Positions 3,783 through 64,000 of a stretch of DNA of 64,000 nucleotides are shown here, one piece after another. The stretch's first letter is position 1, and each line of letters starts with the position of its first letter. The stretch comes from an uncultured Candidatus Saccharibacteria bacterium (GTDB lineage: Bacteria; Patescibacteriota; Minisyncoccia; UBA11713; 2-01-FULL-45-33): the NCBI GenBank assembly GCA_964464405.1, contig CAYXFX010000002.1, positions 44,027 to 108,026 of the forward strand, written 5' to 3'. A program made the position numbers and the translations under genes. The notes under the pieces were generated by a model. It had not been told where the DNA came from and searched no databases. It saw only the letters and a program-made list of their open reading frames with translations.

Positions 3783-5510
3783 TTAATACTTAATTTTATA
3801 TAAATAAAGGCTTTCCGATCTTAAAACTTCTTCGAGCCCAGTTATAAATTTTAAGTCCCATTCGGGATTTTTCTCTTTATCCCAAACGATATAATTAACT
3901 CCGTATTTTCTTAATATTTCAACGATATTGTTTTTATTTTTTGAAATATCCGAGTATTTCGCCTCCAGTTCCTTTTTTACTTCTAGCTCACTTTTCCCGG
4001 TTTTATGTGCATTAAATCCGGCAACGGTTCCCAAAAGCATATAGTAATAGTTGCGGTCCGTAAAATTCTTTTCTGCGGTCTTTACATTTGAATAATAATC
4101 AAAAAAGTTATTTCTGGCGTCTTTATTTAAATATGTATAAACGTAAAATACATCATAAATTTTTTCTTCCGGTGTATTTAAAGTTTGTGCGCCATCTGCC
4201 CAAAAAAGGTCATGCGGAGTATGCACAATAAACAGAAGCTGATCTAAATATTGGGACGCAAGTATTACGCCCGGCGTGCTGTCTTTATTTAAATAATCAA
4301 TTGCCGCACCATAGCGTTGCAGATATTTTTTTATTTCGAATGTTGCAAATGTTCCGCGGTATTGATGGATTCCCATGTATCCATAAATTAATAAAATAAT
4401 AGAACAAAACAATATATTTTTATATTTAAAACTTTTTAATAAATCAGCCGCAATTATTAATACAACAAAAATCGAAACGGGAATGACAAAATACCAAAAA
4501 TAATGCCATGGCTGTATTTCTCTGCCAGTGATAATATGCTGATTTAGGACAAACCAATTTCCTAAAAATAAGCTGAAAAGCAAAATAGAATTTTTTTGCA
4601 TGCGGTTTTTATAAAAATACGGAATTAGCAAAAAAACAGGAACCAAAGCGATTTTGCTGAAAACAAATGAGCCGCTCAGTGTCTCCCCGGAAAAAAACAA
4701 AAGCCGCCGTCCTAATTCGGAGTTAATCACAGAAAAAAGCTTAATTAACGGATACGCACCAACTGCTAATGCCGTAACTCCGACAAGCACTATTTTTTTA
4801 ATTTGCCCAAAATCGCGCAACACCGCGTTTAGCAGCAAAGAAACAAAAATGACCGCTCCAGCATAAGTCCATGCGTAAAAATAAACATAAAATAACGCGC
4901 CTAGCGTCGCTCCAGACAAATAAATATATTTTTTATTTGTTTCTTTTAAACACTTATTAAAAAAATATAAAAAGAGAAAAAGAAAAATCGCGCTAAAAAG
5001 CGGACGTATAGGACGAGCATAAACATTAAAATCCGTGCCGTATCCGCTAAAAAGTATCGGATATCTAACAATCAAATTATATCCTCCGATAATAAAAACC
5101 GGCGCAAGAACCGAAACAATTTTGTCAGCCGTTAATTCAAGGGCTAAAAAATAAATAATAACTGAAAGCAAAAATACGCCAATAAATCCCCATATATTAA
5201 AAACGGCTTCAACATTGACATCAGTGGCCCCAAACAATTTATATGGAAACATCAGCAACTGTTCCACGTAAATTTGTTGGACATTGGGCCCATCTTTTCC
5301 TTCTTTTAAAATAAAATTCCCGAGAGAATGTCCGTCTAAAATTTCTCTGCCGTGAGCAAGATACTGCCACTCATCCGATTCAAAATTTCCTGAATTAATT
5401 CCTCTATAATCGCCTCCGGCTAAAAATGGGAGTATTATATTCGGAAAAAACACCAAAAAAGCAATGGCAAGCGCATTTACCAACATAAACTTGTGTTCCT
5501 TAAATTTCAT
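3783..5510 (-). CDS. Large polytopic membrane protein, paralog A of three; candidate GT-C-like glycosyltransferase of unknown family
   Basis: About 12 predicted TM segments. It shares motifs with 5500..7224 and 12960..14783: G-D-Y-R/Q-G-I-N..D-E..Y..G...L-x-G-N-x-L-G-N, FYVY-x-YAWT, (H/Y)T-x-HDLFW, and a C-terminal NIVE-x-L-x-KY-x-V-x-YI-x-WD. The start is taken at the internal Met (MKFKEHKF...) by alignment with the paralogs; the ORF track extends to 5543. Confidence 0.75.
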   Translation of the reverse strand: MKFKEHKFMLVNALAIAFLVFFPNIILPFLAGGDYRGINSGNFESDEWQYLAHGREILDGHSLGNFILKEGKDGPNVQQIYVEQLLMFPYKLFGATDVNVEAVFNIWGFIGVFLLSVIIYFLALELTADKIVSVLAPVFIIGGYNLIVRYPILFSGYGTDFNVYARPIRPLFSAIFLFLFLYFFNKCLKETNKKYIYLSGATLGALFYVYFYAWTYAGAVIFVSLLLNAVLRDFGQIKKIVLVGVTALAVGAYPLIKLFSVINSELGRRLLFFSGETLSGSFVFSKIALVPVFLLIPYFYKNRMQKNSILLFSLFLGNWFVLNQHIITGREIQPWHYFWYFVIPVSIFVVLIIAADLLKSFKYKNILFCSIILLIYGYMGIHQYRGTFATFEIKKYLQRYGAAIDYLNKDSTPGVILASQYLDQLLFIVHTPHDLFWADGAQTLNTPEEKIYDVFYVYTYLNKDARNNFFDYYSNVKTAEKNFTDRNYYYMLLGTVAGFNAHKTGKSELEVKKELEAKYSDISKNKNNIVEILRKYGVNYIVWDKEKNPEWDLKFITGLEEVLRSESLYLYKIKY

Positions 5511-7224
5511 ACAGATGAATGTTATTCTCACTTTTAATTTCATGAAGTGTATTTATAAAAGACAAATCCCAGCTAGAATAAATATTTTCATCCCACAAAA
5601 TATACCGAACTTCATATTTTTTAAGCATTTCGACGATGTTTTTAGGACTCCGCGCCAGTTTGTTGTATTCCTCTGAAAAATCATTTAATAACTTTTCTCT
5701 TTTTTCTAAAAGTTCCGGATCTTTTCTTCCTAGTCTGCGATAATATTCATAGTGGTCAAATCCGGATAAATATCCTTCTATGCCTTCATAAACCGCGTGA
5801 GTCGGCGCATTATTAATAAAATCATTTCTTGTATTTTTATTTAAATATACATAAAGATACAAAGCGTCTTTAAAGCGCTGCATAGGATTGTAATTCATTG
5901 CGGCAAAATTGTGCCAAAAAAGATCATGCGGAGTATATATATTTACGAGCTGCGCATAAGGGTCGTCTCCCGCTAAAACAACTTCTGACTCTTTTTCTTT
6001 ATTTAAAATTTCCAGCACACTTTTATATTTTTGGTCGTAAAGTTTAGATTCGTAAGTTGTGCCAAAAGAACGGTATTGTCCTATGGCCGTATTTAGCAAC
6101 GCAAGCAAAATCAGTAAACCAAAACTTATTTTTCTTAAAAAATTATAATTTTCGGACAGCTTCCATAACATATAGAAGGTCGTAATAATAAAAAGCGGCA
6201 CAATAAAAAACCAGTAATAATGATTTTGTTGTAGCATTCGTCCCGTAATTATCTGCTGGTTTAAGGCGACAAATCCGGCAAGAGCCACAGAAAGCACAAA
6301 AGGGGCATTCGAATCCTCGCGGTCTTTGTAAATAAAAAAACAGAAAAGAACCAGTGAAAGCAACCCGAGATTATTCATTATAGGAGCGCTTCCCAGTGAC
6401 GACCATGAAAAATAATAAAATTGTTCACCTGCCGGCGAATTCAAAAAGTTAAAAATACGCAAAAGATACAAGCTTCCGATAAAAAATCCCAAAATATTTA
6501 TCCAGAAAACCCTTTTTGCGTTGCGGAAATCCTTCCAAAAAAGAAGGGCTAAAAATAAAATTCCGTTTAAAACTAAAGCAAAAGTCCAGGCATAAAAATA
6601 AACATAAAAAAGTAGCCCGTAAAGCGCGCCGGCAAAAAATATCGTTTTAATTTTTTCTGATTTAAGTGCCTTTACTAAAGCAAGCAAGTAAGAAAAAAAT
6701 GCAAGTGAGCCAATATAAGGATATAAAGATCTGCCGTACACATTAAAATCCTCGTAAAAAAAAGTTTTGTTGTATACTATTGAATAACCGCCGACAACAA
6801 AAAGTGCGGCGGATATTGCGAGAAATTTATTCGCGCTAATTTTCAAAGTTAAAAAATAAATTAGCAGAATTAAAAGAAATACTCCTATAAAATTATAAAT
6901 ATTATAAAGCGTTACAATATTTATTTGGTCCTTCAGTCCAAGAAAATATAAAGGTCCAACAAGCACATACTCGTTTATCGTAAAGTAATAGTCTTGTTTC
7001 GTACTTTTCCCTTCTTTTAATGCGGGGTTGCCCAAATAATTGCCGTGAAGCACATCGTTTCCGCGTGTTAAATAAAGATGTTCGTCTGTACCAAAATGAG
7101 CAATGTTTATTCCTTGGTACGAATCTCCAGCTTTAAAATAAAATGCAACTAGAGGAAATTCTATAAGCAGAGCCAAAATAAAGGACGAAATTAGTGCGGC
7201 TCGATGTTGTTTTAAAAATTCCAT
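5500..7224 (-). CDS. Large polytopic membrane protein, paralog B
   Basis: 574 aa with the same conserved motifs as paralogs A and C (AGDSYQGINIAHFGTDEHLYLTRGNDVLHGNYLGN; FYVYFYAWTF; YTPHDLFW; KNIVEMLKKYEVRYILWDE). Confidence 0.8.
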   Translation of the reverse strand: MEFLKQHRAALISSFILALLIEFPLVAFYFKAGDSYQGINIAHFGTDEHLYLTRGNDVLHGNYLGNPALKEGKSTKQDYYFTINEYVLVGPLYFLGLKDQINIVTLYNIYNFIGVFLLILLIYFLTLKISANKFLAISAALFVVGGYSIVYNKTFFYEDFNVYGRSLYPYIGSLAFFSYLLALVKALKSEKIKTIFFAGALYGLLFYVYFYAWTFALVLNGILFLALLFWKDFRNAKRVFWINILGFFIGSLYLLRIFNFLNSPAGEQFYYFSWSSLGSAPIMNNLGLLSLVLFCFFIYKDREDSNAPFVLSVALAGFVALNQQIITGRMLQQNHYYWFFIVPLFIITTFYMLWKLSENYNFLRKISFGLLILLALLNTAIGQYRSFGTTYESKLYDQKYKSVLEILNKEKESEVVLAGDDPYAQLVNIYTPHDLFWHNFAAMNYNPMQRFKDALYLYVYLNKNTRNDFINNAPTHAVYEGIEGYLSGFDHYEYYRRLGRKDPELLEKREKLLNDFSEEYNKLARSPKNIVEMLKKYEVRYILWDENIYSSWDLSFINTLHEIKSENNIHLYEI

Positions 7225-12959: not shown

Positions 12960-14783
12960 CTAGTTACTCTTTACTTTATATAGATATATGTTGCCTTCGC
13001 TAGTTAAAAGAGCCAGATTTCCCAAAATTGGGCTTAAATCCCATTCGGGACTTTTATTTTTATCCCAAACAATAAAATTTACTTCATTTCGTTTTAAAAT
13101 TTCAGCCATACCATTCGGATTTGCGGCTTTTTTATAATTATCGAACAGATAGTTTATCGTTTCCTCGCGGCTTTTTACAATCTTGGGGTCTTTTAATCTT
13201 ACACGTATATTATATTGATCGAAATCGACTCCGGATCTAAAGCCAGCAATATAACTATAAATCAAAGGATAATAGCTGTTTTCACCAGTAGTTCCGACAA
13301 GGCCGAACCCCTCATCAATTTTGCGCATTTGTTCCACAAAATTATTTCTTGAGTTTCTGTCCATGTAAGCATAAAAAAAGAGTGCATCTTCTAAACGCTT
13401 GTAAGGGGTATTAAATACAAATGCATTATTGCCCCAAAATAAATCGTGGCCAGTATAAACCGAAAAGAATCTCCCGTAATAATGTTCGGAGGTTAAAACT
13501 ACGCCGGGTTTTTTTTCTTTTTTTAAATAATCAATAATTGGACGGTAATTCTGTCCGTATTCCTTTATTTCCCATGTGGCCATCATTCCCTGATACTGCT
13601 GGCGCGTAGCGGCAATAAAAGCGGCAACAATAATTATTCCTAAAATCCATTTGCCATATTTTTGCAGTAAAGCAGAAACCTGTTTTTGATAATTTGCAAA
13701 TTTCCACAAAAGATACGATCCTACAACGATTGAAGTTGGAATAGTAAAGTACCAGTAGTAGTGCATAATCTGGGGTACTTTTCCGGTAAGCACTTGTTGG
13801 TTGAGGGTTAACCAGCTTGCTAAAACTATTGATAGAAAAACCGGCCCGTATTTATTCCTCTTATTTAAAAGCAAAAAAAGTATTGATAAAAAAAGGACAG
13901 CAAAAGAAATTTTACTAAATGGCGCCGGGTTTCTATTTAACGTGATTCCGTAATACAAAATCTGCCTGCCTACTTCCGTTTTAGAAAATGTAAGAGTTTT
14001 ATAAATTGTAAATGATCCTATCATGAGCCCCGCAAAAAAAACTATAAACATCTTTTTAAAAAGTTCGTACTGTCGTAAAATTAAATACAAAAGAACTAAA
14101 CTTCCCGTAAACGCCAAAGCGAAAGTCCACGCGTATGGATAAACATAAAAAAGAACACCGAATAATACGCTGGGCAATATCCAATATTTTAATTCCGTCC
14201 TGTCTAAGCTTCTAACTAGTGCGTTAATATATAAAAACAAAATAAGAAGGCCGTAAACAGGCATAATTGGCCTGCTAAAAATATTTAGGCCTGGAACTAC
14301 GGCCGTAACAGGCGCGTGCGAAAGTTTTACCAATGTATATCCGCCCACTGTAAATAGCGCAACGGATACGGAAAGTAATTTATTTTCCGAAAAAGAATAA
14401 ATTAAAAAATAAATGGATAAAACCAAAAGAAAAACGCCCAAAAAAGAATAAAAAGTGTAAATCGAAGTAATATTTTCTTTTGCAAATTCCACAAAACCCG
14501 AAAATTTAAACGGGGACAAAAGCACATACTCCAAATAAACCTGGTGGGGATCTGAAGACGAGTCTTTGCCGATTTTTAAAAAAATATTTCCCAAAGAATT
14601 GCCTTCCAAAATCTCTCTTCCTTTAACAATATAATAAGCATCGTCCACCCATTCGCCGATATTTACGCCTCTATAAACATTTCCCGCCAAAATAGGAAAA
14701 ATCAGTGCTGGAGAAATAACAACTAACGACATAAGTATCGCCGTAACAATTGCAAAGTTATGAATTTTTAGGAAACCAAACAA
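12960..14783 (-). CDS. Large polytopic membrane protein, paralog C
   Basis: 607 aa with the same motif set as paralogs A and B (AGNVYRGVNIGEWVDDAYYIVKGREILEGNSLGN; FYVYPYAWTF; YTGHDLFW; MAEILKRNEVNFIVWDK). Confidence 0.8.
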   Translation of the reverse strand: MFGFLKIHNFAIVTAILMSLVVISPALIFPILAGNVYRGVNIGEWVDDAYYIVKGREILEGNSLGNIFLKIGKDSSSDPHQVYLEYVLLSPFKFSGFVEFAKENITSIYTFYSFLGVFLLVLSIYFLIYSFSENKLLSVSVALFTVGGYTLVKLSHAPVTAVVPGLNIFSRPIMPVYGLLILFLYINALVRSLDRTELKYWILPSVLFGVLFYVYPYAWTFALAFTGSLVLLYLILRQYELFKKMFIVFFAGLMIGSFTIYKTLTFSKTEVGRQILYYGITLNRNPAPFSKISFAVLFLSILFLLLNKRNKYGPVFLSIVLASWLTLNQQVLTGKVPQIMHYYWYFTIPTSIVVGSYLLWKFANYQKQVSALLQKYGKWILGIIIVAAFIAATRQQYQGMMATWEIKEYGQNYRPIIDYLKKEKKPGVVLTSEHYYGRFFSVYTGHDLFWGNNAFVFNTPYKRLEDALFFYAYMDRNSRNNFVEQMRKIDEGFGLVGTTGENSYYPLIYSYIAGFRSGVDFDQYNIRVRLKDPKIVKSREETINYLFDNYKKAANPNGMAEILKRNEVNFIVWDKNKSPEWDLSPILGNLALLTSEGNIYLYKVKSN

Positions 14784-22160: not shown

Positions 22161-22709
22161 TTTGACTCCTCGCGGCGAATCCTCAAATACAACCTGTTCT
22201 GTCGGATCAATCCCCATGCGAGCAGATGTTTCCAAAAAACAGTCGGGGGCAGGCTTAGAATTTTTCACGTCAGTTAGTAAAACAATTTCATGAAGCATAA
22301 AAAGTTTTGCAAGTCCGGAATATTTAAGTAGCGCCAGACCACGTTCGAGTTCAACCGCCGTCCCTATGGATGTGCGATACCCCGCACATCTGATCTGTCC
22401 GAGGAACTCCAAGAATCTCGGCCGAGGCGATAAGTCCAAAGTTCTTAAAAGCTTGTCATAATGCAACCCTTTTCTTGCAAGAAATTCTTCCTGAGTTAAA
22501 TCCGGTTTTTTAGAAGCAAGAGAATAAATTTCTTGAATAATTTCTTTATCAGGCCCACCAATGAAGTGAGGCAATGTTTTAATGGCCTCTTTAAGCGTAA
22601 GACGCACCCCAATTTCTTCGGCGGCCATAAGCCACCCATTATGATGCGCAGGCTCCACATTTATCACAGTACCTTCTAAATCAAACGCCGCTCCCTTTAT
22701 CTGTGTCAT
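22008..22709 (-). CDS. HAD-superfamily hydrolase (β-phosphoglucomutase/phosphatase-like, subfamily IA)
   Basis: FDLEGTV motif I and VVFEDSPRGVKSGVAAG motifs III and IV; 233 aa. Confidence 0.7.
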   Translation of the reverse strand: MTQIKGAAFDLEGTVINVEPAHHNGWLMAAEEIGVRLTLKEAIKTLPHFIGGPDKEIIQEIYSLASKKPDLTQEEFLARKGLHYDKLLRTLDLSPRPRFLEFLGQIRCAGYRTSIGTAVELERGLALLKYSGLAKLFMLHEIVLLTDVKNSKPAPDCFLETSARMGIDPTEQVVFEDSPRGVKSGVAAGSMVIGIPVYDDETVIRNLYCSGAYKVFTDWRQISGFFERCVFNK

Positions 22710-25853: not shown

Positions 25854-25895
25854 AAGCATTCCAACTTTACGCGATCGCGTAAAGTTGGAATGCTT
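25854..25895. repeat. 42-bp perfect palindrome with GCGATCGC (HIP1-like) core; bidirectional terminator-like
   Basis: AAGCATTCCAACTTTACGCGATCGCGTAAAGTTGGAATGCTT, followed by a T-run. It is intergenic between convergent or adjacent genes. The core CAACTTTACGCGATCGCGTAAAGTTG recurs at 63179-63202 and 63782-63807. Confidence 0.7.
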
Positions 25896-25981: not shown

Positions 25982-27613
25982 TTAATTGCTTTTGTACAGC
26001 ACGTAATGCCCTTCGTTTTTGAGAAGAGTATATTTTGTTTTTAGATCATTTTCAAGATCCGGGAAAAGGGTCGGATAGTCCTCTTGCGTTACAACATAAG
26101 AATACATTTTTCCGTTTTCTGTTAAAGAGTTCCTGCCAAAATATAATACCGGATTAATTTGGAGAAATTGATAAATCTGAAAATCATTAAGCAAATATGC
26201 GACGCTGGGAGCATTAATGATTAGTATTTTAGAATCTTTAGGCAAGGCGTTTGAAATATAATCTGAAATTTTTTGTGCGTCATTTGAATAATATAGCAGT
26301 GAATATCTTTGATTAAATGTGAAAACCAGCTGGAACAGAAATATAAATATAATTGCTGCTTGCGCGGCTTTAATGTAATTAAAACTAGTTATTACTTTAG
26401 GAACTTTAAAAATTAATTTCTTTTTTGAATTTAAATCTACCAGCTTTTTTTCAATATTTTTTAGTATGTAAGTAATAGACGCAGGAAACGTAAGAAAAAG
26501 CAGAAGATGTGCTGGGAAAAAATAACGGTACCAACCTGGTGTTTTTAAATAAAAAATAAGTGTAAAAATCGTAAAAATAAATAAAATTGACTCTGTTTCC
26601 TGAACTTTTTCTTTTTTTATTTTTTTGATAATTAAAAACAAAATAAATGCAGAAAAAAGAACTGTGAAATGGATAGGAGTTGATTCCTTAAAAAACCTCA
26701 CTATATTTTGCAAAATAAGTTCAATTAAATTTTGCGAGGCATATGAGTTTGAGTAATAACCGAAAGCGCTAATAAGCCCCCCTGCTGAATACTCGGAAAG
26801 AATCGTATATAGCCAAAAAATCATAGGGGACAACGCGCCTGCGGCGATTAAAAACAGGCGCTTACATAAATTATTTAAATCTCGCCATCCGTAAATTATT
26901 TCTGCAATAAAAACTGAGGCAGGAACAATCAAAAAAAACGGTTTTGTCGCTGCCGAAAGACCAATGAACAAACCCGCAAAAAACAGGTGCCGATTGAAAA
27001 CAACCCGAGCAGTGTTTTTGCTTTCCTCGTTCCGGCCAGCGCCGGAACTCAGGGTGGAAGCTTCGCAATTTTTCGCTTTGCGAAAAAACCGTGCTTGCTC
27101 GCTTCCAAACCCGCAAAAATGCTCTCGGTTTGTTTTCTTGGGACAGAGCTCAAGCAAAATAAGCGCCGCCAGAAAATAAAATAAACCCGGAATTTCTCCT
27201 AATAAATTTTTTCCGTTGCCATAAAATGGAGTAAAACTTATGATTAGCGCGACACTCATTATCGCCAGCGTTATTCCATACATTTTTTTTACAAGAAAAT
27301 ATGCAGAAATTGTAAATAGAAATAAAAACACAACCATCGGATATCTTGCTGCCAAAATTGTATTTCCGAAAATTTTAACTGAAAGCGCAGAAGGCAAAAG
27401 CGCAGGATAATTTGAAGTTATTAAAAATTGCCTTGTTTCTACGTATTCTCCGGGGGCGGTGCCCAAGCTAAATACTCCGTCGCTCACTAAACTTTTTATT
27501 ATTCCTAAATTAATCCCCTCATCAAACCATGTAGCCGGGCTTGCGGAAAGATGCCACGTGCTAAATACGGCTAAAATTATAAAAAGTAAAATTATAATTA
27601 TTTTATTTTGCAT
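25982..27613 (-). CDS. GT-C superfamily membrane glycosyltransferase (PMT_2/ArnT-like) carrying an in-frame repeat-element insertion
   Basis: N-terminal multi-TM region with the loop ..WFDEGINLGIIKSL... A hydrophilic, GC-rich-encoded segment (KKTNREHFCGFGSEQARFFRKAKNCEASTLSSGAGRNEESKNTARVVF) interrupts the TM core; its DNA (27001-27138) is a copy of the 23539-23671 element. Confidence 0.75.
   Translation of the reverse strand: MQNKIIIILLFIILAVFSTWHLSASPATWFDEGINLGIIKSLVSDGVFSLGTAPGEYVETRQFLITSNYPALLPSALSVKIFGNTILAARYPMVVFLFLFTISAYFLVKKMYGITLAIMSVALIISFTPFYGNGKNLLGEIPGLFYFLAALILLELCPKKTNREHFCGFGSEQARFFRKAKNCEASTLSSGAGRNEESKNTARVVFNRHLFFAGLFIGLSAATKPFFLIVPASVFIAEIIYGWRDLNNLCKRLFLIAAGALSPMIFWLYTILSEYSAGGLISAFGYYSNSYASQNLIELILQNIVRFFKESTPIHFTVLFSAFILFLIIKKIKKEKVQETESILFIFTIFTLIFYLKTPGWYRYFFPAHLLLFLTFPASITYILKNIEKKLVDLNSKKKLIFKVPKVITSFNYIKAAQAAIIFIFLFQLVFTFNQRYSLLYYSNDAQKISDYISNALPKDSKILIINAPSVAYLLNDFQIYQFLQINPVLYFGRNSLTENGKMYSYVVTQEDYPTLFPDLENDLKTKYTLLKNEGHYVLYKSN
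27001..27138. repeat. GC-rich palindromic repeat element copy B, inserted in-frame within a CDS
   Basis: Imperfect terminal inverted repeats (CAACCCGAGCAGTGT and its near reverse complement AATGCTCTCGGTTTG), an internal palindrome TTCGCAA..TTGCGAA, and about 70% identity to copy A. Confidence 0.65.
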
Positions 27614-28925
27614 AAAAATTTTTTAATGCAAACATAAATAAAAATGGCGAAAGAGGCAGCATATACCTGCTCATATCCGCTCCGATCCCAAGTGCACCCA
27701 GAGATACAGCATTTACCGCGAGTATTGATATAAAAAGCGAAGACCAAAAAATAATTTTTCTATCAAAAAATCCAATTAAAGACAAAAAATATGTTACGTA
27801 CCAAAAAAAACCTCCGATTAAAGCAAGCAATGTAATTATATTGCCCAAGTAACTCTCAAAAATCTGCGGAAATTTCGGGCGAATAACGTATTCTGAAAGA
27901 TATTTATAAGGATTTTTAAATAGAGATTTAATGACGAGCGACGAATGAAATTTTATATATTCCAGCGGATTTTCTTTAAATATTTTCCAAAAATGTTCTT
28001 TATAATAAGGAACTAGCGCAAAATCATAATTTGAAATATCTTTTCTGGGATATCCCGAAGGCGCTTCGGGGCGCGGCAAAATAAATCCTTTTTTATCCGC
28101 ATATTGGCTCGTTACATTTCCATAAAGATTATACCAAGACGCGCTTGTTAACTCCCAAGTGTTAAAAACAATTTTATTTCGCAGCATCCAAGGGAATAAG
28201 ATCGCAAAAAAAATAATAATACTAACCGCCCCGACCTTAAGGTCGTGGCTCCAAGGAAAAATTATTTTTTCATAGGTTAACTCAGACGAGGAATTGTTGT
28301 TTATCATTTCTTCTTTCCGCTTACTATAAAACCTCCAAACCATTGCAAGCAGGAATAACGGGAAAAGATAAAATCCTACCGATCTTGTAAGAGTCGCGAG
28401 CCCAAAAATAAATGAAAACAAAAAATATCTTTTTAAAACAAATAAATAAAAACTTAGAATAAACAAGAACGCGTAGAGATAATCAGACATCAAAAGATTG
28501 TTCCAGTAAATCGACATCGGCTCAACGGAAACAACGAGAGCTGAAAAAAGCCCTACTTTTTTTGAATCAAAAATTAAAAAACCCATTTTATAAATTAAAA
28601 TAACAGTAAATCCGGCAATAATGTTTTGAAAAAAAATAACTAAAAAAAGAGGAAGGCGCGCCCACAAAACTCCTGCGATAAGCAAAATATATAACGGCGG
28701 CCTATAAGCGTCGGGCATGTAGGGAGCATCGGTGTTTAAACTAAAAACGCCGTGGTTTATTAAATTTTCAGCACTTCTTAAATAAAAAGAAAATGCATCG
28801 GAATACGCCAAAAATCCCTCGCCCCCGAATTTTATCTGCACAAAAAGCGCGTAAAGAAATCTGATTCCGAATGCCGTCAAAAAAAGAAAAGTTTCAATTT
28901 TGTGTTCTTTTAAAAATCTAGTCAT
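27603..28925 (-). CDS. GT-C superfamily membrane glycosyltransferase (PMT_2/ArnT-like)
   Basis: 440 aa with the motif [17 protein letters not shown] in the first extracytoplasmic loop and about 11 TM segments. Confidence 0.75.
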
Positions 28926-36386: not shown

Positions 36387-37440
36387 TTCCTATCTTATTT
36401 AAAATTTTATCAATTAAATTATTAAGATTATGATCTTTTACAACAACTTCGCGCAGTACAAGATTTTTTCCGTTTTTTTCCAATTTAACAATTTTTTCCA
36501 AAAATTTATCAACATTTTTATCAGTATAGTACTCCCGCGGCACAATATCTTTGAAAGCTTGGCCAGTTACGAGAATCGGAAGCCCGCAAGACATGGCTTC
36601 CAAAACGGTTTTATCGACACTCCCCGTCTCACTTACGTGAAGTAATATATCATGGCTGTTATAAACGGCGGGCATTTCGTCATTTCTTTTTGCTCCCAAA
36701 AACCGAATATCGCCGTTTAAATTATTTTTATTTATCTTTTCTTCCAAGCGCTTCTTATATATAACGTCTTTGGGAGTAATTATGTCCCCCACAATATCAA
36801 GTGCGGCGTCTATATTTCTGTGCGCAATTTCAACCATCAAATCAATTAAAAAATCCAAATTTTTTGATTCCGAAATTCGCCCAATAGCTAACAATTTAGT
36901 AGACTTATTTAAAATATTGTTCCTTAGTACTCCGACGCTTTCGTTGGAGTGGTTCGGAACAAAGCGCTCCGTATCAATTCCGTGACCTGTAATAATAATT
37001 TTTTTGGAATTTATCCGGCAGCTCTCTTTAGAAGCCGTAAAAATATTTTTTACAATCTTTTCCGCGATTCTTAGCGACAAAGTTACAGATTTATGTGTAT
37101 ACCACAAAAATATTTTTTTTCTGAAAATTAACGCAACCGGGCAAATTAAAATCGCCCATGCGGGAATCATGTGCACAAAAATGACATCTGCTTTTCTTAC
37201 ATTTTGAAATAAGTATTTATAGAAATTTATATACCTAGCTGGCCGGCCGATACTGCGTTCTTTGCCCATCGAAAAAACGTGCACGTTTTGTGGTAAATTA
37301 TATTTTCCTTTTTGTCCACAAATAACAAAAACACAATCTGCCTTTTTCCCGAATTCCTCTATCCACCCATGAAAAAATCCAAGATTGCTGTCTTTCCTAT
37401 CAACTTTTTGAGTAAAAATTAGAAGATTCATTTTAAGCAT
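36379..37440 (-). CDS. Family 4 (GT-B) glycosyltransferase
   Basis: HVSETGSVDKTVLEAMSCGLPILVT (E-x7-E region). Confidence 0.8.
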   Translation of the reverse strand: MLKMNLLIFTQKVDRKDSNLGFFHGWIEEFGKKADCVFVICGQKGKYNLPQNVHVFSMGKERSIGRPARYINFYKYLFQNVRKADVIFVHMIPAWAILICPVALIFRKKIFLWYTHKSVTLSLRIAEKIVKNIFTASKESCRINSKKIIITGHGIDTERFVPNHSNESVGVLRNNILNKSTKLLAIGRISESKNLDFLIDLMVEIAHRNIDAALDIVGDIITPKDVIYKKRLEEKINKNNLNGDIRFLGAKRNDEMPAVYNSHDILLHVSETGSVDKTVLEAMSCGLPILVTGQAFKDIVPREYYTDKNVDKFLEKIVKLEKNGKNLVLREVVVKDHNLNNLIDKILNKIGNG

Positions 37441-38534
37441 TTCTCAAAACTTTGTTTATATAATTTTAAATATTCTTCTTTTGAAACTGATTTAATCGGT
37501 TTCGGCGGTTTAATTTTGCCTTCAAGAGCAAGTTTAATTTTTTCTGCTAACATATTTTTATCACCGACAGGAAAAATGTTTTCTGGTTCTAATATTTCTT
37601 TCGCAACTCCAACATCCGACGATATTATTTTGCACCCAGCAGCAGCCGCTTCAACCAAGGTCCGACCGTAGCTTTCATGGTTAGACGTCAGTAAAAACAA
37701 ATCGCATGTTTTATAATATGACAAAAGATCGTTAGTATGCGGCTCAAATTTAATAAAGTTGCTAAGCTCCGATTCACTTACCATATTCTTTAAACTTTCT
37801 TTTTCTGGCCCGTCGCCGACGATAAGCAACAACGGCGTTTCAGTAACAAATTTTACATGACTCGCATATTCGCCTGCTGGCGAATTGCTCTGCTCGTGCC
37901 GACCGCACTGCGCAAGGTCCTGCAAAACTTGTTCCCTCACCGCCTTAAAACTTTCAATCGATAATTCAATATTTTTTTCTCTGGTTATTCTAGACGCCAT
38001 CAAAATAATAAACTTTCGCCTTCCATATTTGCCATGCAAATCGATTTTAACAGGAGCTTGCCGAATTTGCTCGACATCAACAAAAATCGGCAAGACAGAA
38101 AGTTTGGAAATTGTAAATTTAAAATTGTATATTAACGAATCAGCGATTCGTTCAGACACTACCCTTATGCAACTTGCTCGCGGAATCAAAAATTTAGCCA
38201 GCAAAACCCTAATTTTATTCAGCCGCGAATGTTCGGCGAAATGAGGATTAAAAATGTCTGAATGAATTTGCATCTGCCATGGTATGCCGTAAATTTTTGA
38301 AAAAATCCACGCAAGAAAAGAATGTTCCATATCCTGCGAGGAAATTATGTCAAACTTTTTTCGACTCAAAATTTTATAACAACTAAAAAATCCCGAAATA
38401 AAACTCCAAATGCTGCCCCTGCAAAGCAGAATTTCAATTTCTCCAAGGACGCTTCTATATTCCTCTATCCTTTTTCCGGTATCCGAACCCCCCTCCAAGA
38501 CACTCGGATCCCCGCTTATCATTAATATGCGCAT
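37428..38534 (-). CDS. Family 4 (GT-B) glycosyltransferase
   Basis: TSNHESYGRTLVEAAAAGCKIISSDVG. Confidence 0.8.
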   Translation of the reverse strand: MRILMISGDPSVLEGGSDTGKRIEEYRSVLGEIEILLCRGSIWSFISGFFSCYKILSRKKFDIISSQDMEHSFLAWIFSKIYGIPWQMQIHSDIFNPHFAEHSRLNKIRVLLAKFLIPRASCIRVVSERIADSLIYNFKFTISKLSVLPIFVDVEQIRQAPVKIDLHGKYGRRKFIILMASRITREKNIELSIESFKAVREQVLQDLAQCGRHEQSNSPAGEYASHVKFVTETPLLLIVGDGPEKESLKNMVSESELSNFIKFEPHTNDLLSYYKTCDLFLLTSNHESYGRTLVEAAAAGCKIISSDVGVAKEILEPENIFPVGDKNMLAEKIKLALEGKIKPPKPIKSVSKEEYLKLYKQSFEKCLK

Positions 38535-38554
38535 TAAATTATTTAATTAAAACA

Positions 38555-40855
38555 TTAATCCAGTAGCGTGTCAATTGTGTTTTTTATCATTCTTTCTTTT
38601 GAAAATTCCTGCGCTTTTTGCTTTGCATTTTCGGAGAATTTTTTTGCCCGTTCCGGATTTTTTAAAATCTCTAGAATTCTACTTTTAAGTGCTTCTTTAT
38701 CATTGTAATCAACTAAAAATCCACTTTCCCCGTCTTTAATAAGTTCCGGGTTGCCTCCGATATCGGTAGTTACAACCGGAACTCCTAAAGCCATTGCTTC
38801 TAGAATTTGGTGTGACAAGCCCTCATATGCCGTATTTAATACAAAAACATCCGCGGCTCGCAAATACATAAATAATTTTTCTTTGGGTTCATCATGAAAT
38901 ATAAATAACTTTATTTCCGGAATCTCCTGCTTTAATTCGTTAATTGCTTCTTTTAAAGCTTCAAATCCCTTCCATGGAACATTTCTGCCAGCAGAAACAA
39001 CAACTTTGCCGGAAACTCCGAGTTGTCTTCTTGCTTCGTCTTTCAAAATATTTACGTTCGGAATCTCAAACGAATTGTATACAACGTGAATTTTATTTTC
39101 CGGCACTCCCCACATTAAAACGATTTTTTTTAAATATTCGCTCGGGACTATTACGAAATCTGCTTTCTTTGCCACAAACCGCTCGACGAAACGCCTCGCT
39201 TCAGTGAAAAAATCGTATCTGCTTTTTTGAAACTCTTCCAAGTTTGAAAATTGAAAATTGCCTGCCCGCCAATTGGCAGGCGGGGAAATTGAAAATTTTT
39301 GCATATACTGCTCCCACGCATAGTCGCCAACAATTTTCAGTAAAAACTTTTTCCGTAAAATTTTTGCCGCAAGCATTGCTGGCAAACCTACGCTTACGGG
39401 ATCCTGCGCGAAAACAGCATCCGCGTTCCGCGCGAACCGCAGGGCTCTAAAGAAATAAAGTGTATGTCTTAAAACACGAGGATATTTTCTTATTAATCCG
39501 AAACTTAAAATTTTTACTCCAATATTTTTTTTTGGGAGCTCGTCCAACAAAATTTTGCTATACGTTGCCGGCCCCCCCACATCCGGCGGATATAGCCCAG
39601 TGGCTATAAGAACTCTTTTTTTGATGAATAGTTGACTATTAAAAATTTTTTCATAGTCATCCGCAATTTTATCCCACGAAAACTTTTCTCTTACCATTTT
39701 TTGCCCATTATCAACAATACGCGCCAACAACTCTTTATTGTTTAATAAAGTTTTAATCTTCTCCGCCAAATCTTTTGGGTCATCAATTTTTGCAAACAAC
39801 CCCGTTTCTTTATCCTTAATGATGTCTAAAATTCCGCCAACAGGAGTTCCTATTATAGGGAGGCCGGCTGATAAAGCCTCAACGAAAGCATTGCCCATAC
39901 CTTCCGATCGTGAAGGTCGAACAAAAATATCGGCTTGGGATAGATGCTTTGGAATTTCATCGTACGGCACTTCACCCAAAAATTTAATCTGCAATCCTCC
40001 CTCCGAAAAGAATGTTCCTCCCCCTTTTTCCCCCTCCCTTAAAGTAAGGGAGGGGGTCGGTGGGTGGGTTATCTCATTTGCCAAACTTTCTAAAACACTA
40101 CGCTCCGACCCATCACCAATAACTAGAAGTTGGAAGTTTGAAGTTGGTGGTTGGATTTTTTTCAGCTCCGCCATCGCCCTTATCAAAACATCAATCCCAT
40201 TTTTGGGAACCAATCTTGATACAGTAATTATGACATTTGATTTTTTTTGAAAATTGAAAATTGCCTGCCCGCCAATTGGCAGGCGGGGAAATTGAAAATT
40301 GTTTGTATCCACTCCATTATGAATGACTTTTTCTTCTCCGATATATCCATAATCGTGCGCGACATTTAGTAAGTAGTTAGAAATTGCGGTTACGCAATCT
40401 GCTTGATTTAAAATGAATTTAAACATCCTACCTATAATTCCTCCTCTTCCTTTTTTAATCCTTTCGTCACCGTACCCGTATTGGATATTAAAAATGAACG
40501 GAATTTTTGGATAAAATATTTTGCATATTGCCGCCGCCGCTGCGCCGAATGATAAATCTAGCCCAAAAAATAAATTTTCTTTTTTCTTCATAAGTTTTCT
40601 GATCACAAATAAAGAAAAAATTGGCAACAAATATTTATCTATTACGGTTCCGAAACCCAATCTAATTATCTTTCCTTCTGAATACACCTCCTCACTCGGC
40701 AAGTCCTTCCTCATTCGGGAAGTTACAATAATAAAATCAAATTTATTTTTTAACCGCTTAGAAATTTCTTCAACAGCAATTTCCGCACCTCCAATAAAAG
40801 GCCTGTACGCCGTTGTAAAAACGATAATTTTGGGCTTTGATGCGCTTAAATCCAT
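38555..40855 (-). CDS. Tandem double GT4 (two GT-B domains) glycosyltransferase fusion, carrying several in-frame repeat insertions
   Basis: Domain 1 has ..SRSEGMGNAFVEALSAGLPIIGTPVGGI... Domain 2 has ..TAYEGLSHQILEAMALGVPVVTTDIGG... Total 766 aa. It contains a 54-bp exact repeat twice (39244-39297 and 40247-40300), a C/G-rich palindrome (40004-40070), and a 7-mer tandem (40126-40155). Confidence 0.8.
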   Translation of the reverse strand: MDLSASKPKIIVFTTAYRPFIGGAEIAVEEISKRLKNKFDFIIVTSRMRKDLPSEEVYSEGKIIRLGFGTVIDKYLLPIFSLFVIRKLMKKKENLFFGLDLSFGAAAAAICKIFYPKIPFIFNIQYGYGDERIKKGRGGIIGRMFKFILNQADCVTAISNYLLNVAHDYGYIGEEKVIHNGVDTNNFQFPRLPIGGQAIFNFQKKSNVIITVSRLVPKNGIDVLIRAMAELKKIQPPTSNFQLLVIGDGSERSVLESLANEITHPPTPSLTLREGEKGGGTFFSEGGLQIKFLGEVPYDEIPKHLSQADIFVRPSRSEGMGNAFVEALSAGLPIIGTPVGGILDIIKDKETGLFAKIDDPKDLAEKIKTLLNNKELLARIVDNGQKMVREKFSWDKIADDYEKIFNSQLFIKKRVLIATGLYPPDVGGPATYSKILLDELPKKNIGVKILSFGLIRKYPRVLRHTLYFFRALRFARNADAVFAQDPVSVGLPAMLAAKILRKKFLLKIVGDYAWEQYMQKFSISPPANWRAGNFQFSNLEEFQKSRYDFFTEARRFVERFVAKKADFVIVPSEYLKKIVLMWGVPENKIHVVYNSFEIPNVNILKDEARRQLGVSGKVVVSAGRNVPWKGFEALKEAINELKQEIPEIKLFIFHDEPKEKLFMYLRAADVFVLNTAYEGLSHQILEAMALGVPVVTTDIGGNPELIKDGESGFLVDYNDKEALKSRILEILKNPERAKKFSENAKQKAQEFSKERMIKNTIDTLLD
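39244..39297. repeat. 54-bp exact repeat, copy 1, inside the GT4-fusion CDS
   Basis: TTGAAAATTGAAAATTGCCTGCCCGCCAATTGGCAGGCGGGGAAATTGAAAATT, identical to 40247-40300. It contains the quasi-palindrome CCTGCCCGCCAATTGGCAGGCGGGG flanked by GAAAATT direct repeats. Here it is translated as ..PPANWRAGNFQFSNLEEF.. Confidence 0.9.
40004..40070. repeat. C/G-rich palindromic insert inside the GT4-fusion CDS
   Basis: CCTCCCTCCGAAAAG...CCCCTCCCTTAAAGTAAGGGAGGGGG (perfect palindrome 40031-40055), encoding the low-complexity segment LREGEKGGGTFFSEGG. Confidence 0.6.
40247..40300. repeat. 54-bp exact repeat, copy 2, inside the GT4-fusion CDS
   Basis: Identical to 39244-39297 but read in a different frame (..NFQFPRLPIGGQAIFNFQ..). 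Confidence 0.9.
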
Positions 40856-40870
40856 TTAGCTAATTATAAC

Positions 40871-42415
40871 TCACTTCGGGAAATATCGTTTAACAAAAAC
40901 ATATGCTAAGCCGCCAAGAAGCCCGGCGCCTGCTCCGTAAAATAGCCAAATATATTCATTCCAAGAGAAATTCTTTGGATTTTCCGAGTTTAAAACAGAA
41001 GCTGTTAAGTTTTCATTTTTAACCTCCGAAACTTCATTTTTGGGTTTAGTTTCGGTTTTAATTTCTTTAACTATTGCTTTTTTTGCAGTAGATAACTTTT
41101 GATTCACCTCTCCAGGAGTAGAGCGCGTAAGCATCCACTCGTTATTTATTAAACTTAAACTTTCGTCCTGCTTTAAATTTGCGTCTTCGTATTTAACGGA
41201 AAGCGCTCGCTTGCCGTTAGGATATAAAACGGCGAGCTCCCCTGTTTCATTTAAAGCAAAACCTAGCGTTGAAGAAGCAACGGCAAGAAAAGCATATGGA
41301 GATAAAAAAGTATTTAACGGAAAATAGTAAGTGCGAATCCCGGAGTTTAAACCGAAATTTGAAATTTCAATTTTTTTATTCGAATCGTTTTTAAATTCCA
41401 CCCATCCATCCGCACCGGTTTTAATTTCCGAGATTCTAAGTGGGCTTTCCATTGCTGCAATTTTAACCGTATGCAGTGCGGATATATCGCCGGAAGCAAC
41501 TGTAAGCGCCGTAATATAATTTCCTGGGTATGAAAAAACATGAGTTACGCGCTTGCCCTCCTTGATAGCCGATCCATCGCCGAAATTCCATAAAAACCGC
41601 GCATTTAAAATCGCTTCTCCCTCCACACCCTCAACCGCACCTTCAAAAAAAACATCTGACCCCGCAATTACCGTGCGGTCGAAACCGGCATACGCTTTTA
41701 TTTTATTTTCTTCGAGAGCACGCCCTTGATTTTGTGCGTAAGATGAATCGTTTTGATTGTTTTGAAACAAACTTTCATTGGGCTGATTAGAAGTATTTTC
41801 ACTAGAGCCGCTTGGCAACGGTGCACTTGTGCCGTTTTTTATAGACCAGCCAGAAGCACTGTTTTTATTTGCAAAATCTTCCAAATTTAAATACTGGTCT
41901 TCTGAAAAATTTGAAATATCAATATAAGATCCCGCAGTCCAAATTCCTATCTCCGCGGCGGAACTTTCCCATGTTTTCTTTTCTCCGCTTTCGGGCTTCT
42001 GATATCTCGCGAAAGAAATAATTGTATCCTTGCTGTGGTTCGTTGAATTAAAAAGCGCAACAGACCCGGAAGAATTACCCATATTCCCCGTCGCAGCTAC
42101 GTGGTACAAATTATTTGCATCATCCGCGCCCGACTTCCGCAAATGAATTTTAACAGCACTTCCCGATTCGAGCGCAAAGTTGGGAAAAGTAAAATATCCC
42201 ATTCCATCAGGATATAAATCCCATCCGTTTAAATTTACTGATTCTGTGCCGAAATTTTTTATCACAATATATTCAAGACCTGTATCGCTGCCGGCTGGAT
42301 CAAACATTATTTCAGAAATCGCCGCGTCTTTAGACGCGGCATAGACTCGAGATGAGAACGAAAAAACCAAAAAAGATAAAATTAAAATAAAAAATCGCCC
42401 ATAATTCATCATCAT
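40871..42415 (-). CDS. Secreted or surface protein with two lamin-tail-domain (LTD)-like repeats and a C-terminal TM anchor
   Basis: N-terminal signal peptide. The LTD-like segments are ISEIMFDPAGSD..EYIVIKNFG..VNLNGW and LRISEIKTGADGWVEFKNDS..ISNFGLNSG. The C-terminus has a G/A-rich TM helix followed by KRYFPK. Confidence 0.6.
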   Translation of the reverse strand: MMMNYGRFFILILSFLVFSFSSRVYAASKDAAISEIMFDPAGSDTGLEYIVIKNFGTESVNLNGWDLYPDGMGYFTFPNFALESGSAVKIHLRKSGADDANNLYHVAATGNMGNSSGSVALFNSTNHSKDTIISFARYQKPESGEKKTWESSAAEIGIWTAGSYIDISNFSEDQYLNLEDFANKNSASGWSIKNGTSAPLPSGSSENTSNQPNESLFQNNQNDSSYAQNQGRALEENKIKAYAGFDRTVIAGSDVFFEGAVEGVEGEAILNARFLWNFGDGSAIKEGKRVTHVFSYPGNYITALTVASGDISALHTVKIAAMESPLRISEIKTGADGWVEFKNDSNKKIEISNFGLNSGIRTYYFPLNTFLSPYAFLAVASSTLGFALNETGELAVLYPNGKRALSVKYEDANLKQDESLSLINNEWMLTRSTPGEVNQKLSTAKKAIVKEIKTETKPKNEVSEVKNENLTASVLNSENPKNFSWNEYIWLFYGAGAGLLGGLAYVFVKRYFPK

Positions 42416-63104: not shown

Positions 63105-63178
63105 TGAACTCTCCTCCTTTTCTAGACATAAAATAGAATTTTATTGCATTTTTGTCAAACGACGACGACAAAAAATCC

Positions 63179-63202
63179 AACTTTACGCGATCGCGTAAAG
63201 TT
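63179..63202. repeat. Palindrome AACTTTACGCGATCGCGTAAAGTT (copy 2 of the HIP1-core element)
   Basis: 24-bp perfect palindrome, intergenic, identical in its core to 25858-25891 and 63782-63807. Confidence 0.8.
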
Positions 63203-63212
63203 AACACATTTA

Positions 63213-63770: not shown

Positions 63771-63781
63771 ATACTATATTT

Positions 63782-63807
63782 CAACTTTACGCGATCGCGT
63801 AAAGTTG
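63782..63807. repeat. Palindrome CAACTTTACGCGATCGCGTAAAGTTG (copy 3)
   Basis: 26-bp perfect palindrome located 11 nt upstream of the 63213..63770 start. Confidence 0.8.
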
Positions 63808-64000
63808 GTCAAATTTGAACATGCATATTGCCATTTCCTTATTATGAGGAAAACCGCCATATGTGCTTGCACATTACCCGTGCGTATTGCATTTCTATCT
63901 TTTTGTCGTAAAATTTATGTACTGAAAGAAAAGATAGAAAAAACTCGCCTGCCGATAAGGCAGGTTTTAATAGCAGCTGTTACTCCCCCTCTTTTGGAAA

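Follow-up and report, generated by a model that had tools for sequence, protein, structure and literature searches.

How does one gene come to hold the same stretch of DNA twice, translated in two different frames? The question is raised by a glycosyltransferase (GT) gene in a 64,000-nt contig stretch of an uncultured Candidatus Saccharibacteria bacterium, the whole of which we call the window. A first-pass annotation had noticed an exact 54-bp repeat inside this gene and ascribed it to a mobile mini-element or to recombination. Our analysis suggests, with a probability of about 0.8, that the GT gene carries members of a family of tiny mobile mini-elements, GC-rich and quasi-palindromic, that are spread through AT-rich Patescibacteria genomes. 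Both earlier proposals seem to apply: the core of the repeat occurs elsewhere and orthologs lack the inserts, which points to a mobile element, and the core appears to have been copied within the gene together with its flanks, which points to recombination. The mobile unit, however, would be the 24-nt core and not the 54-mer. The gene and its two repeat copies are laid out as follows.

38555..40855, minus strand: host gene, a double-GT4 fusion; a single intact 766-aa open reading frame (ORF) of two GT4 glycosyltransferase units
40246..40300, no strand assigned: 55-nt repeat, N-terminal GT4 copy, in the interdomain linker after the NGVD motif, aa ~185-203
40264..40287, plus strand: core, N-terminal copy, CCTGCCCGCCAATTGGCAGGCGGG; minus-strand reading PRLPIGGQ
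40288..40300, no strand assigned: arm of AATTTTC-type 7-mers (coding strand), native to the N-terminal site together with 40246-40263
39243..39297, no strand assigned: 55-nt repeat, C-terminal GT4 copy, aa ~520-538, within the first Rossmann domain of the second GT4, at a position not homologous to that of the N-terminal copy
39261..39284, plus strand: core, C-terminal copy; minus-strand reading PPANWRAG

An exact repeat read in two frames

Positions 39243-39297 and 40246-40300, both inside the one GT ORF, are identical over 55 nt. The repeat is therefore real and one nucleotide longer than described; with one mismatch it extends to 58 nt. A 28-nt core pattern has two exact matches in the 64-kb window, compared with none in 100 dinucleotide-preserving shuffles. 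As the copies are spaced by 1003 nt (1 mod 3), they are translated in two frames of the 766-aa ORF, giving ..SISPPANWRAGNFQFSN.. and ..NFQFPRLPIGGQAIFNFQ.., in agreement with the two-frame reading and the translations of the annotation. The 55-mer is free of stops in all three coding-strand frames, and in those only. The 7-mer repeats flanking the core are AT-rich (GAAAATT on the plus strand, i.e. AATTTTC on the coding strand), and Tandem Repeats Finder (TRF) reports TTGAAAA x2.4 arms at both copies. Both copies show the peptide NFQF despite the frame shift, because the 7-nt tandem repeat gives one cyclic peptide (NFQFSIF) in every frame. Scanning the window for diverged copies revealed none within 3 mismatches of the 28-mer or 7 mismatches of a 25-mer.

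The core lies in many unrelated genes

The GC-rich centre of the repeat (~79% GC) is the 24-nt core, CCTGCCCGCCAATTGGCAGGCGGG. Using an exact 25-mer as the query, we found 14 loci in 10 species-representative genomes, 13 of them labelled Patescibacteria (Saccharibacteria, Nomurabacteria, Giovannonibacteria and Paceibacterota). The exact 24-mer was found in 57 metagenome loci. After duplicate removal, there are 57 distinct contexts with unrelated flanks, including the window's two and thus 55 others. Nearly all of them are on low-GC Patescibacteria contigs: 54 of the 57 derive from sources whose GC does not exceed 0.5, and the host contigs have 32-48% GC. The 31 nt of flanking sequence within the repeat were found in no other locus. 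Copies of the core with one mismatch are rare, with two across 552 kb of fetched loci.

Forty-four of the 54 low-GC contexts are in ORFs of 150 aa or longer, which belong to more than 15 gene families. The hosts are everyday housekeeping genes, encoding MurJ, a GH130 phosphorylase, SecA, ParB, LigA, LeuRS, PheT, PBP2, TatD, O-antigen ligase, HisRS, MurB, a PMT-family transferase, a ComM-like ATPase, a lytic transglycosylase and an LTD/PKD protein, and about ten copies are in short ORFs or intergenic DNA. Genomes of the Candidate Phyla Radiation (CPR) have a high coding density. The intragenic share of the core is roughly as expected from this density, which suggests that the element does not seek genes but simply survives in them. 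Within ORFs, 31 of the 44 cores are codon-aligned on the coding strand and read PARQLAGG, and the frame bias over all 57 contexts is strong (p = 2e-12). Since the core is found in both orientations and several frames, a motif at the peptide level does not fit. We prefer to regard the elements as selfish or neutral passengers that are presumably translated; they do not resemble functional motifs. The two-frame reading and the presence of the core in many unrelated genes and genomes also support the annotation's view that the two copies are identical at the DNA level rather than the protein level.

Two rival explanations were weighed against this distribution. Within the 64-kb window the sequence is confined to the GT gene, its flanks are common to both copies and to no other locus, and the C-terminal copy does resemble an ectopic copy. 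All this would suit a purely local, one-off intragenic duplication or gene conversion without a mobile element. We consider such an origin very unlikely, as unrelated genes and genomes supply 55 further contexts with the exact core, which elsewhere forms a clean presence/absence indel. A local event covers the second copy only, not the origin of the first, and survives solely as the second step of the history given below.

The other is an assembly or sequencing artefact, i.e. a spurious palindrome in contigs or a repeat-induced misassembly, a worry that the annotation had itself raised. Metagenome assemblies are the source of the window and of every related locus, and a 55-nt repeat 1 kb apart could mislead short-k assemblers. 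However, the core is found in assemblies of many projects and assemblers, judged by record names (RIFCS scaffolds, NODE_, k141_, JGI Ga, Hainich ERZ), and the long conserved ORFs that contain it keep their frame. To either side of each copy, the GT ORF remains collinear with its homologs, and dozens of protein clusters hold mutated versions at the same site, which is impossible for an artefact. This explanation is hardly credible.

The core had no exact match in IMG/VR viral contigs, and phage (50,697) and plasmid (72,556) records gave only partial matches at chance level (E of at least 0.4). A phage or plasmid carrier was therefore rejected.

Three exact 24-mers are in contigs of GC 0.58-0.67 that do not look like CPR (L010, labelled Limisphaerales, L042 and L054), where they are read in other frames (ACPPIGRR, PACQLAGR). 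These may be chance GC-rich matches, or the element may occur outside Patescibacteria. The ParB orthologs of loci L002 (3427-4443) and L003, from MAGs whose labels, Saccharibacteria and Nomurabacteria, would place them in different candidate phyla, carry the core at the same position of the C-terminal tail. The tails read ..KEEKKE-PARQLAGG-DDAELYNLSNFNI and ..KEEIKK-PARQLAGG-DDSDLYNISNFSV, each up to the stop, and the flanking DNA has diverged.

Anatomy of the core and its variants

The core is quasi-palindromic, with 4 positions that differ from its own reverse complement. It can fold into a 10-bp stem (one mismatch, one wobble) around an AATT loop, or into two alternative 6-7-bp stems, and is free of stop codons in all six frames. 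Its ends are CCTG... and ...CGGG. Forms of 18, 24 and 27 nt have the 9-nt ends CCTGCCCGC and GCAGGCGGG in common, which are quasi-complementary, and differ only at the apex. The 18-nt apex variant is CCTGCCCGCGCAGGCGGA, and the 27-nt variant is CCTGCCCGC-CCTTCTGGA-GCAGGCGGG (loci L078, which is P0299, a GH130; L079, which is P0175; and L080, which is P0217). A 30-nt relative, CCCGCCCGACCGAACGGTCGTTCGGGCGGG, was found at a Q^D site. In the MurJ P0217, a tandem pair occupies the insertion site, with the 27-nt variant followed by the 24-nt core. The elements may thus grow or vary at the hairpin tip. The lengths observed are 18, 24, 27, 30, 36 and 66 nt, all multiples of three.

Two other identities were considered for the repeat. 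An Rfam scan of 38000-41500 at permissive E-values returned chance hits below threshold and matched no RNA family, and a known RNA family was rejected on this basis. Also rejected was the whole 55-mer as an extended foldback or structural mobile unit: folded as DNA together with their flanks, the two copies reached z = -2.0 and -0.55, the arms have no stable pairing, and they are present in no other locus. Native flanks copied along with the core are preferred.

Filled and empty alleles differ by a discrete insertion

All three inserts of the window gene are absent from the 21 aligned GT homologs (56-63% identity). Compared with these homologs, the net insert lengths are +24, +36 and +66 nt, all multiples of three. 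In MurJ, 101 of 120 orthologs (73-100% identity) are empty, mostly with a length of 559 aa, and 19 are filled, all at the site KM^DG. The exact PARQLAGG is present in 7 of the 19; the others have point variants (PAHQLAGG, PARQSAGG, SARQLAGG, PTRQLAGG), the shorter PARAGG/PARAGT, or longer forms. SARQLVGG is a further decayed variant of the core. Among the GH130 orthologs, 36/120 are filled at KK^DT, mostly with decayed copies, and 84/120 are empty. The KK^DT site is also used by a related 10-aa family (..PNGRSGG).

At the DNA level, filled and empty MurJ sisters (88-91% identity) differ by exactly 24 nt, AGAATG^GATGGAG. The alignment of filled and empty alleles shows no target-site duplication beyond a 1-nt (G) ambiguity. 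One filled/empty pair (L074 and L073) comes from a single metagenome sample, JGI 3300037810. In a neighbour-joining tree of MurJ, the filled alleles are scattered and have empty sisters at 93-95% aa identity. While the core is 100% identical among filled alleles, the surrounding 240 nt are only 67-83% identical, and the two filled lineages tested are each closest (0.89-0.94) to an empty allele. The scattered alleles and divergent flanks indicate that the filled state neither spread via a recombinant tract nor represents one old drifting insertion. We therefore rejected the spread of a filled allele by homologous recombination, since the filled alleles have no common flanks and both lineages tested are nearest to an empty one. 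Judging from these alignments, the same MurJ site seems to have been hit repeatedly or the element to have been lost precisely, and either way a precise mechanism is implied.

An identical core between diverged flanks at orthologous MurJ sites would also be in line with a functional cis-element under selection (mRNA structure, protein-binding site, DNA-uptake or recombination signal) rather than a selfish one. GC-rich codons are kept in genomes of 33-47% GC, and the outer stems found around some cores show paired variants (CCCGCC..GGCGGG vs CCCTCC..GGAGGG), which points in the same direction. We nevertheless judge this explanation unlikely. The element is patchy among close relatives, being absent from 101/120 MurJ and 84/120 GH130 orthologs, and decay is seen in many copies (e.g. 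PAHQLAGG, PARQSAGG, SARQLVGG). Different genomes have it in different genes, in both orientations and several frames, with just 1-2 exact copies per genome and no Rfam match.

The decayed copies also bear on whether the inserts reach the protein at all. They could be left untranslated through ribosome bypass, as for the 'byp' elements of Magnusiomyces mitochondria and T4 gene 60, or through removal from the mRNA. Derivatives of mitochondrial GC clusters, which in size and composition are the nearest analogues, reportedly undergo bypass in one yeast lineage (Lang et al. 2014). However, bypass would require neither lengths in multiples of three nor stop-free elements, both of which are observed, and decayed copies hold the frame and gain amino-acid changes like ordinary loop sequence. 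Bypass or removal is thus highly improbable.

MurJ has a second insertion hotspot at SPRFS^L (protein alignment columns 248-267), filled in P0142, P0170, P0187, P0205 and P0231. The 9-aa inserts at this site are LGRSKTGEA, LSRSPAGEA, GRSPPGEAI, FSRGSIGKS and LGRGPTGKA, and presumably represent a third hairpin family, of 27 nt.

Target preference and nesting

The base at position -1 of the insertion is a purine in 54/54 contexts (30 A, 24 G), and the base at +1 is G in 43/54. Upstream of the core the DNA is A-rich, with AAA as the commonest triplet; downstream, GAT and GCT are the commonest. These contexts suggest purine^G as the insertion rule, often in the form AAR^GAY, i.e. a Lys/Glu codon and then an Asp/Glu/Gly codon. 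At several loci, the core is at the centre of another palindrome, which is CCCGCCTTCGCTAAA^GCTTCGGCGGGC, a CCCTCC..GGAGGG variant, or CCGCTAGGCAA^GACCTAGCGG. At other loci, the core lies beside a CCCTCTCC..GGAGAGG hairpin. The outer palindromes have centres that match the AAR^G rule, so that nesting may be no more than a consequence of target choice.

Probable history of the two copies in the GT gene

At the N-terminal site, the window gene is longer than its orthologs by 8 aa (24 nt), which corresponds to the core alone. The syntenic ortholog P0017 has AATTTTCAAATTTCAAATTTTCAAAAAAA at this site, with the core absent; its stretch AAAAATTTTCAAATTTCAAATTTTCAAAAAAA consists of AATTTTC-type arms as in the window. 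The presence of the arms without the core indicates that the arms are native and that the N-terminal copy is a plain insertion of the core. On the plus strand, the insertion point is TTG^GAA, in keeping with purine^G. The C-terminal site has gained 12 aa (36 nt) net, though 55 nt match the N-terminal copy, including 31 nt of native arms. Beyond one end of the repeat, TTTG(C/T)AT is present at both sites with a 1-nt offset and could be a junction microhomology.

From these comparisons we infer that the N-terminal copy is the primary insertion. There the core sits within the native AATTTTC-repeat stretch in the interdomain linker of the first GT4, with a net gain of 24 nt. The C-terminal copy is probably an ectopic copy of the core with its N-site flanks: in this second step, the core and 31 nt of native flanks would later have been copied to the second GT4, replacing ~19 nt for a net gain of 36 nt, through either template switching or ectopic gene conversion of a short patch. 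The ectopic copy might have been seeded by an independent core insertion at the C-terminal site. In its new frame the copy stays open, because neither the core nor the 7-mer arms contain a stop in any of the three coding-strand frames. An unrelated perfect hairpin element accounts for the third, +66-nt insert.

The third insert and other hairpins

Three features describe the third insert and a nearby array.

39992..40072, minus strand: lineage-specific segment ITHPPTPSLTLREGEKGGGTFFSEGGL, which exceeds its counterpart in each of the 21 aligned homologs by 22 aa (66 nt)
40030..40056, no strand assigned: perfect hairpin with a 12-bp stem and a 3-nt loop, CCCCCTCCCTTA-AAG-TAAGGGAGGGGG, at the centre of the +66-nt segment
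40126..40155, no strand assigned: weak 7-mer array GAAGTTG x4.3, encoding PPTSNFQLL (TRF score 39, 78% matches)

The G/C palindrome of the annotation is thus real. Folded as DNA with its flanks, the hairpin at 40030-40056 gives -15.7 kcal/mol (z = -3.6), and the +22-aa insert comprises the perfect hairpin plus flanking C-rich and G-rich runs. This hairpin family (CCCTC(T)CC..GGAG(A)GGG type) is unrelated to the core and is also present inside ORFs of loci L006, L007, L009 and L060. The L006 ORF 4865-7087 (LigA) and the L060 ORF 2582-4462 (PMT-family) each contain one core and two CCCCTC..GAGGGG-type hairpins, hence three GC-rich hairpin inserts per gene as in the window's GT gene; this co-occurrence in one ORF suggests that multi-hairpin genes are not unusual. 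The 7-mer tandem at 40126-40155 exists as well, yet it is weak and does not hold up as an insert: its peptide (..TSNFQLL..) is common to the 60%-identical orthologs P0002, P0007 and P0011, so that the GAAGTTG array is not a recent addition.

Using an alignment of 22 sequences, the 766-aa protein was modelled with AlphaFold2 (mean predicted local distance difference test score, pLDDT, 85.6). A pLDDT below 50 was obtained only at residues 1-4, 191-203, 268-285 and 530-533. The three internal low-pLDDT segments correspond to the three inserts, and all of them are coil flanked by regular secondary-structure elements. In the model, the inserts behave as disordered surface loops, which supports the suggestion that selfish elements are tolerated in loops of GT-B enzymes. 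Nothing supports the proposed link to surface-glycan variation, as the same element is found in MurJ, SecA, LigA, aminoacyl-tRNA synthetases, ParB and others.

Two GT homologs, the orthologous double-GT4 genes P0020 (L076) and P0026 (L077), have a further family of palindromic coding inserts, RFPR[LF]A..QGG[LF]AKP, at two different sites. The insert DNA is ..TTTCCTCGC(C)TCGC..CAGGG(C/T)GGCTT..GCCAAACCC.., bracketed by an outer inverted repeat GAGT..ACTC.

Surroundings of the GT gene

The genes around the GT finding are all on the minus strand. The neighbours are a GT4 gene (37428-38534) and a gene for an LTD/PKD protein (40871-42415), a synteny that agrees with that of ortholog P0017. Nearly all 2-kb bins of the window (1-64000) have a negative GC skew, and the cumulative skew drops to -3.5 in an almost monotonic manner, which places the window in a single replichore.

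Three perfect 8-9-bp GC-rich hairpins elsewhere in the window may be further coding hairpin inserts: GTTCCGGCCAGCGCCGGAAC at 27029-27048, in a 546-aa ORF (25985-27622); GCCGCGTCTTTAGACGCGGC at 42321-42340, near the N-terminus of the LTD/PKD ORF; and GATGTGCGATACCCCGCACATC at 22369-22390, in a 240-aa ORF. The palindrome CCAACTTTACGCGATCGCGTAAAGTTGG has three copies, at 25858-25888, 63174-63204 and 63778-63808, that are 90-100% alike. Its centre, GCGATCGC, is the HIP1 octamer of cyanobacteria. Its sites are open only to short ORFs (at most 81 aa) and hence probably intergenic, and the copies could be a terminator-like or REP-like family (REP, repetitive extragenic palindrome). At 3851-6922 and 13034-14475, there are three diverged copies (60-79% identity) of a ~1.7-kb unit, with spacings of ~1.71 kb and 7.5 kb; these are probably paralogous genes, two of them in tandem.

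A proposed mode of spread and what weighs against it

The family of mini-elements that we propose would spread as follows. A 24-nt, stop-free unit would add just eight residues to a gene at each insertion, and copies would persist where these residues fall in a tolerant surface loop. Insertion would be precise, without target-site duplication and with a preference for purine^G, and old copies would decay via point mutation. A trans-acting enzyme that recognises DNA hairpins, e.g. an HUH/Y1 transposase of the IS200/IS605 type (IS, insertion sequence) or of the REP-associated tyrosine transposase (RAYT) type, could by analogy produce such precise, duplication-free insertions. An HUH-type hairpin transposase is a reasonable guess, given that the duplication is missing and the substrate is a hairpin. 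No obvious transposase was seen among the ORFs listed beside intergenic cores in these short loci of at most about 15 kb, a listing that involved no closer search.

Several points, besides the lack of an obvious transposase in these loci, weigh against this proposal. Representative genomes hold 1-2 exact copies each, a low number that is unusual for REP- or MITE-like repeats (MITE, miniature inverted-repeat transposable element). An identical 24-mer across Patescibacteria lineages is hard to square with simple vertical inheritance of an active family, and thus calls for horizontal spread or a very strong constraint on the element. The same-site pattern in MurJ could reflect one ancient insertion followed by many precise losses, which is inseparable from repeated gain, and the bias in frame and orientation may reflect peptide selection instead of target choice. 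Within the GT gene, the N-to-C direction of the copying is deduced from a single ortholog, P0017. The 55-mer arms form no significantly stable extended hairpin (z = -2.0, -0.55), and nothing marks the 55-mer as a structural unit. Finally, translation of the inserts is presumed from intact ORFs only.

A bolder version can be put forward tentatively, although we lean against it. The 24-nt core and its 18-, 27- and 30-nt relatives might be the smallest site-specific mobile DNA seen in bacteria, active now in several Patescibacteria lineages, with precise AAR^G insertion and/or excision without duplication via a hairpin-recognising enzyme. Lengths in multiples of three and the absence of stops in six frames might then be adaptations to essential genes in genomes nearly without intergenic space.

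CPR/Patescibacteria genomes are tiny and densely coding, so that a selfish element lands almost only inside genes. The family illustrates one route of survival under these conditions: a multiple-of-three length, no stop in any frame, and insertion between codons typical of surface loops. If active, it would constitute a very small mobile unit with a precise, duplication-free mechanism, whose enzyme would be of interest for mobile-DNA biology and possibly as a tool. The inserts explain odd GC-rich segments, rich in Gly/Pro/Ala/Arg, in CPR protein predictions. They inflate apparent protein divergence and appear as lineage-specific 'loops' in SecA, MurJ, LigA and aminoacyl-tRNA synthetases. Their presence or absence could also be used as a marker in the population genetics of uncultivated CPR at strain level.

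Comparison with known systems

We found no description of such elements in CPR in the literature, where coverage of subscription journals was thin, so a prior description is possible. Among known systems, the 'peel-and-paste' elements of the IS200/IS605 group resemble the core in duplication-free, precise insertion and excision, in imperfect DNA hairpins and in a short specific target alongside. The core is indeed inserted precisely beside a short target, with -1 always a purine and +1 G in 43/54 contexts. However, IS200/IS605 elements need separate left- and right-end hairpins, are at least 100 nt long and have their target on the 5' side only. No TnpA accompanies the core in the loci seen, and the resemblance amounts to mechanistic speculation.

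REPs and REPINs (REP doublets forming hairpins) mobilised by RAYTs are likewise imperfect GC-rich palindromes of 20-40 nt that would be acted on in trans, with no duplication expected from the HUH mechanism. They are extragenic, high-copy and species-specific and move as doublets, whereas the core is mostly intragenic, low-copy (1-2 exact copies), single and found across lineages. REPs have a conserved GTAG or CGTC head (PMC3733652); the core has neither at its ends (CCTG..., ...CGGG). MITEs (Correia, ERIC, RUP and others) are also small, non-autonomous and occasionally intragenic, creating in-frame fusions. Unlike the 24-nt core, which lacks a duplication, they measure 50-500 bp and have the terminal inverted repeats of a parent IS as well as target-site duplications. 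The termini of the core are quasi-complementary and no parent IS is known, though no search for one was made.

Closer in composition are the GC clusters of yeast mitochondria (e.g. GC42), GC hairpins of 30-50 nt in AT-rich DNA, most of them between genes, with AG target nucleotides at their flanks (PMC4478555). Like the core, they are short GC-rich mobile hairpins in AT-rich genomes that are polymorphic for presence or absence between close relatives and undergo merging or nesting (PMC4478555). The core, with ~79% GC in contigs of 32-48% GC, is likewise polymorphic between sisters at 88-91% nucleotide identity. It differs in residing in bacterial chromosomes, mostly intragenic and in frame, and its flanks follow purine^G without a repeat, rather than AG on both sides.

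Rickettsia palindromic elements (RPEs) are in-frame palindromic inserts of ~100-150 bp in housekeeping genes, in about ten families (PMC10969869). Both RPEs and the core are palindromic, non-autonomous and in frame in many unrelated housekeeping ORFs of reduced-genome bacteria (PMC10969869); for the core, 44/54 contexts are in ORFs of at least 150 aa and would be translated. They also have in common a fold-compatible extra peptide (presumed translated in the case of the core), orthologous sites in related species, and later decay (PMC10969869). In contrast to the ~100-150 bp of RPEs, which are restricted to Rickettsia, the core is a 24-nt indel in Patescibacteria, without target duplication, with a purine^G target, and identical across several Patescibacteria lineages. 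By function, RPEs are the closest known analogues of the elements in the GT gene, and the GC clusters of yeast mitochondria are close as well.

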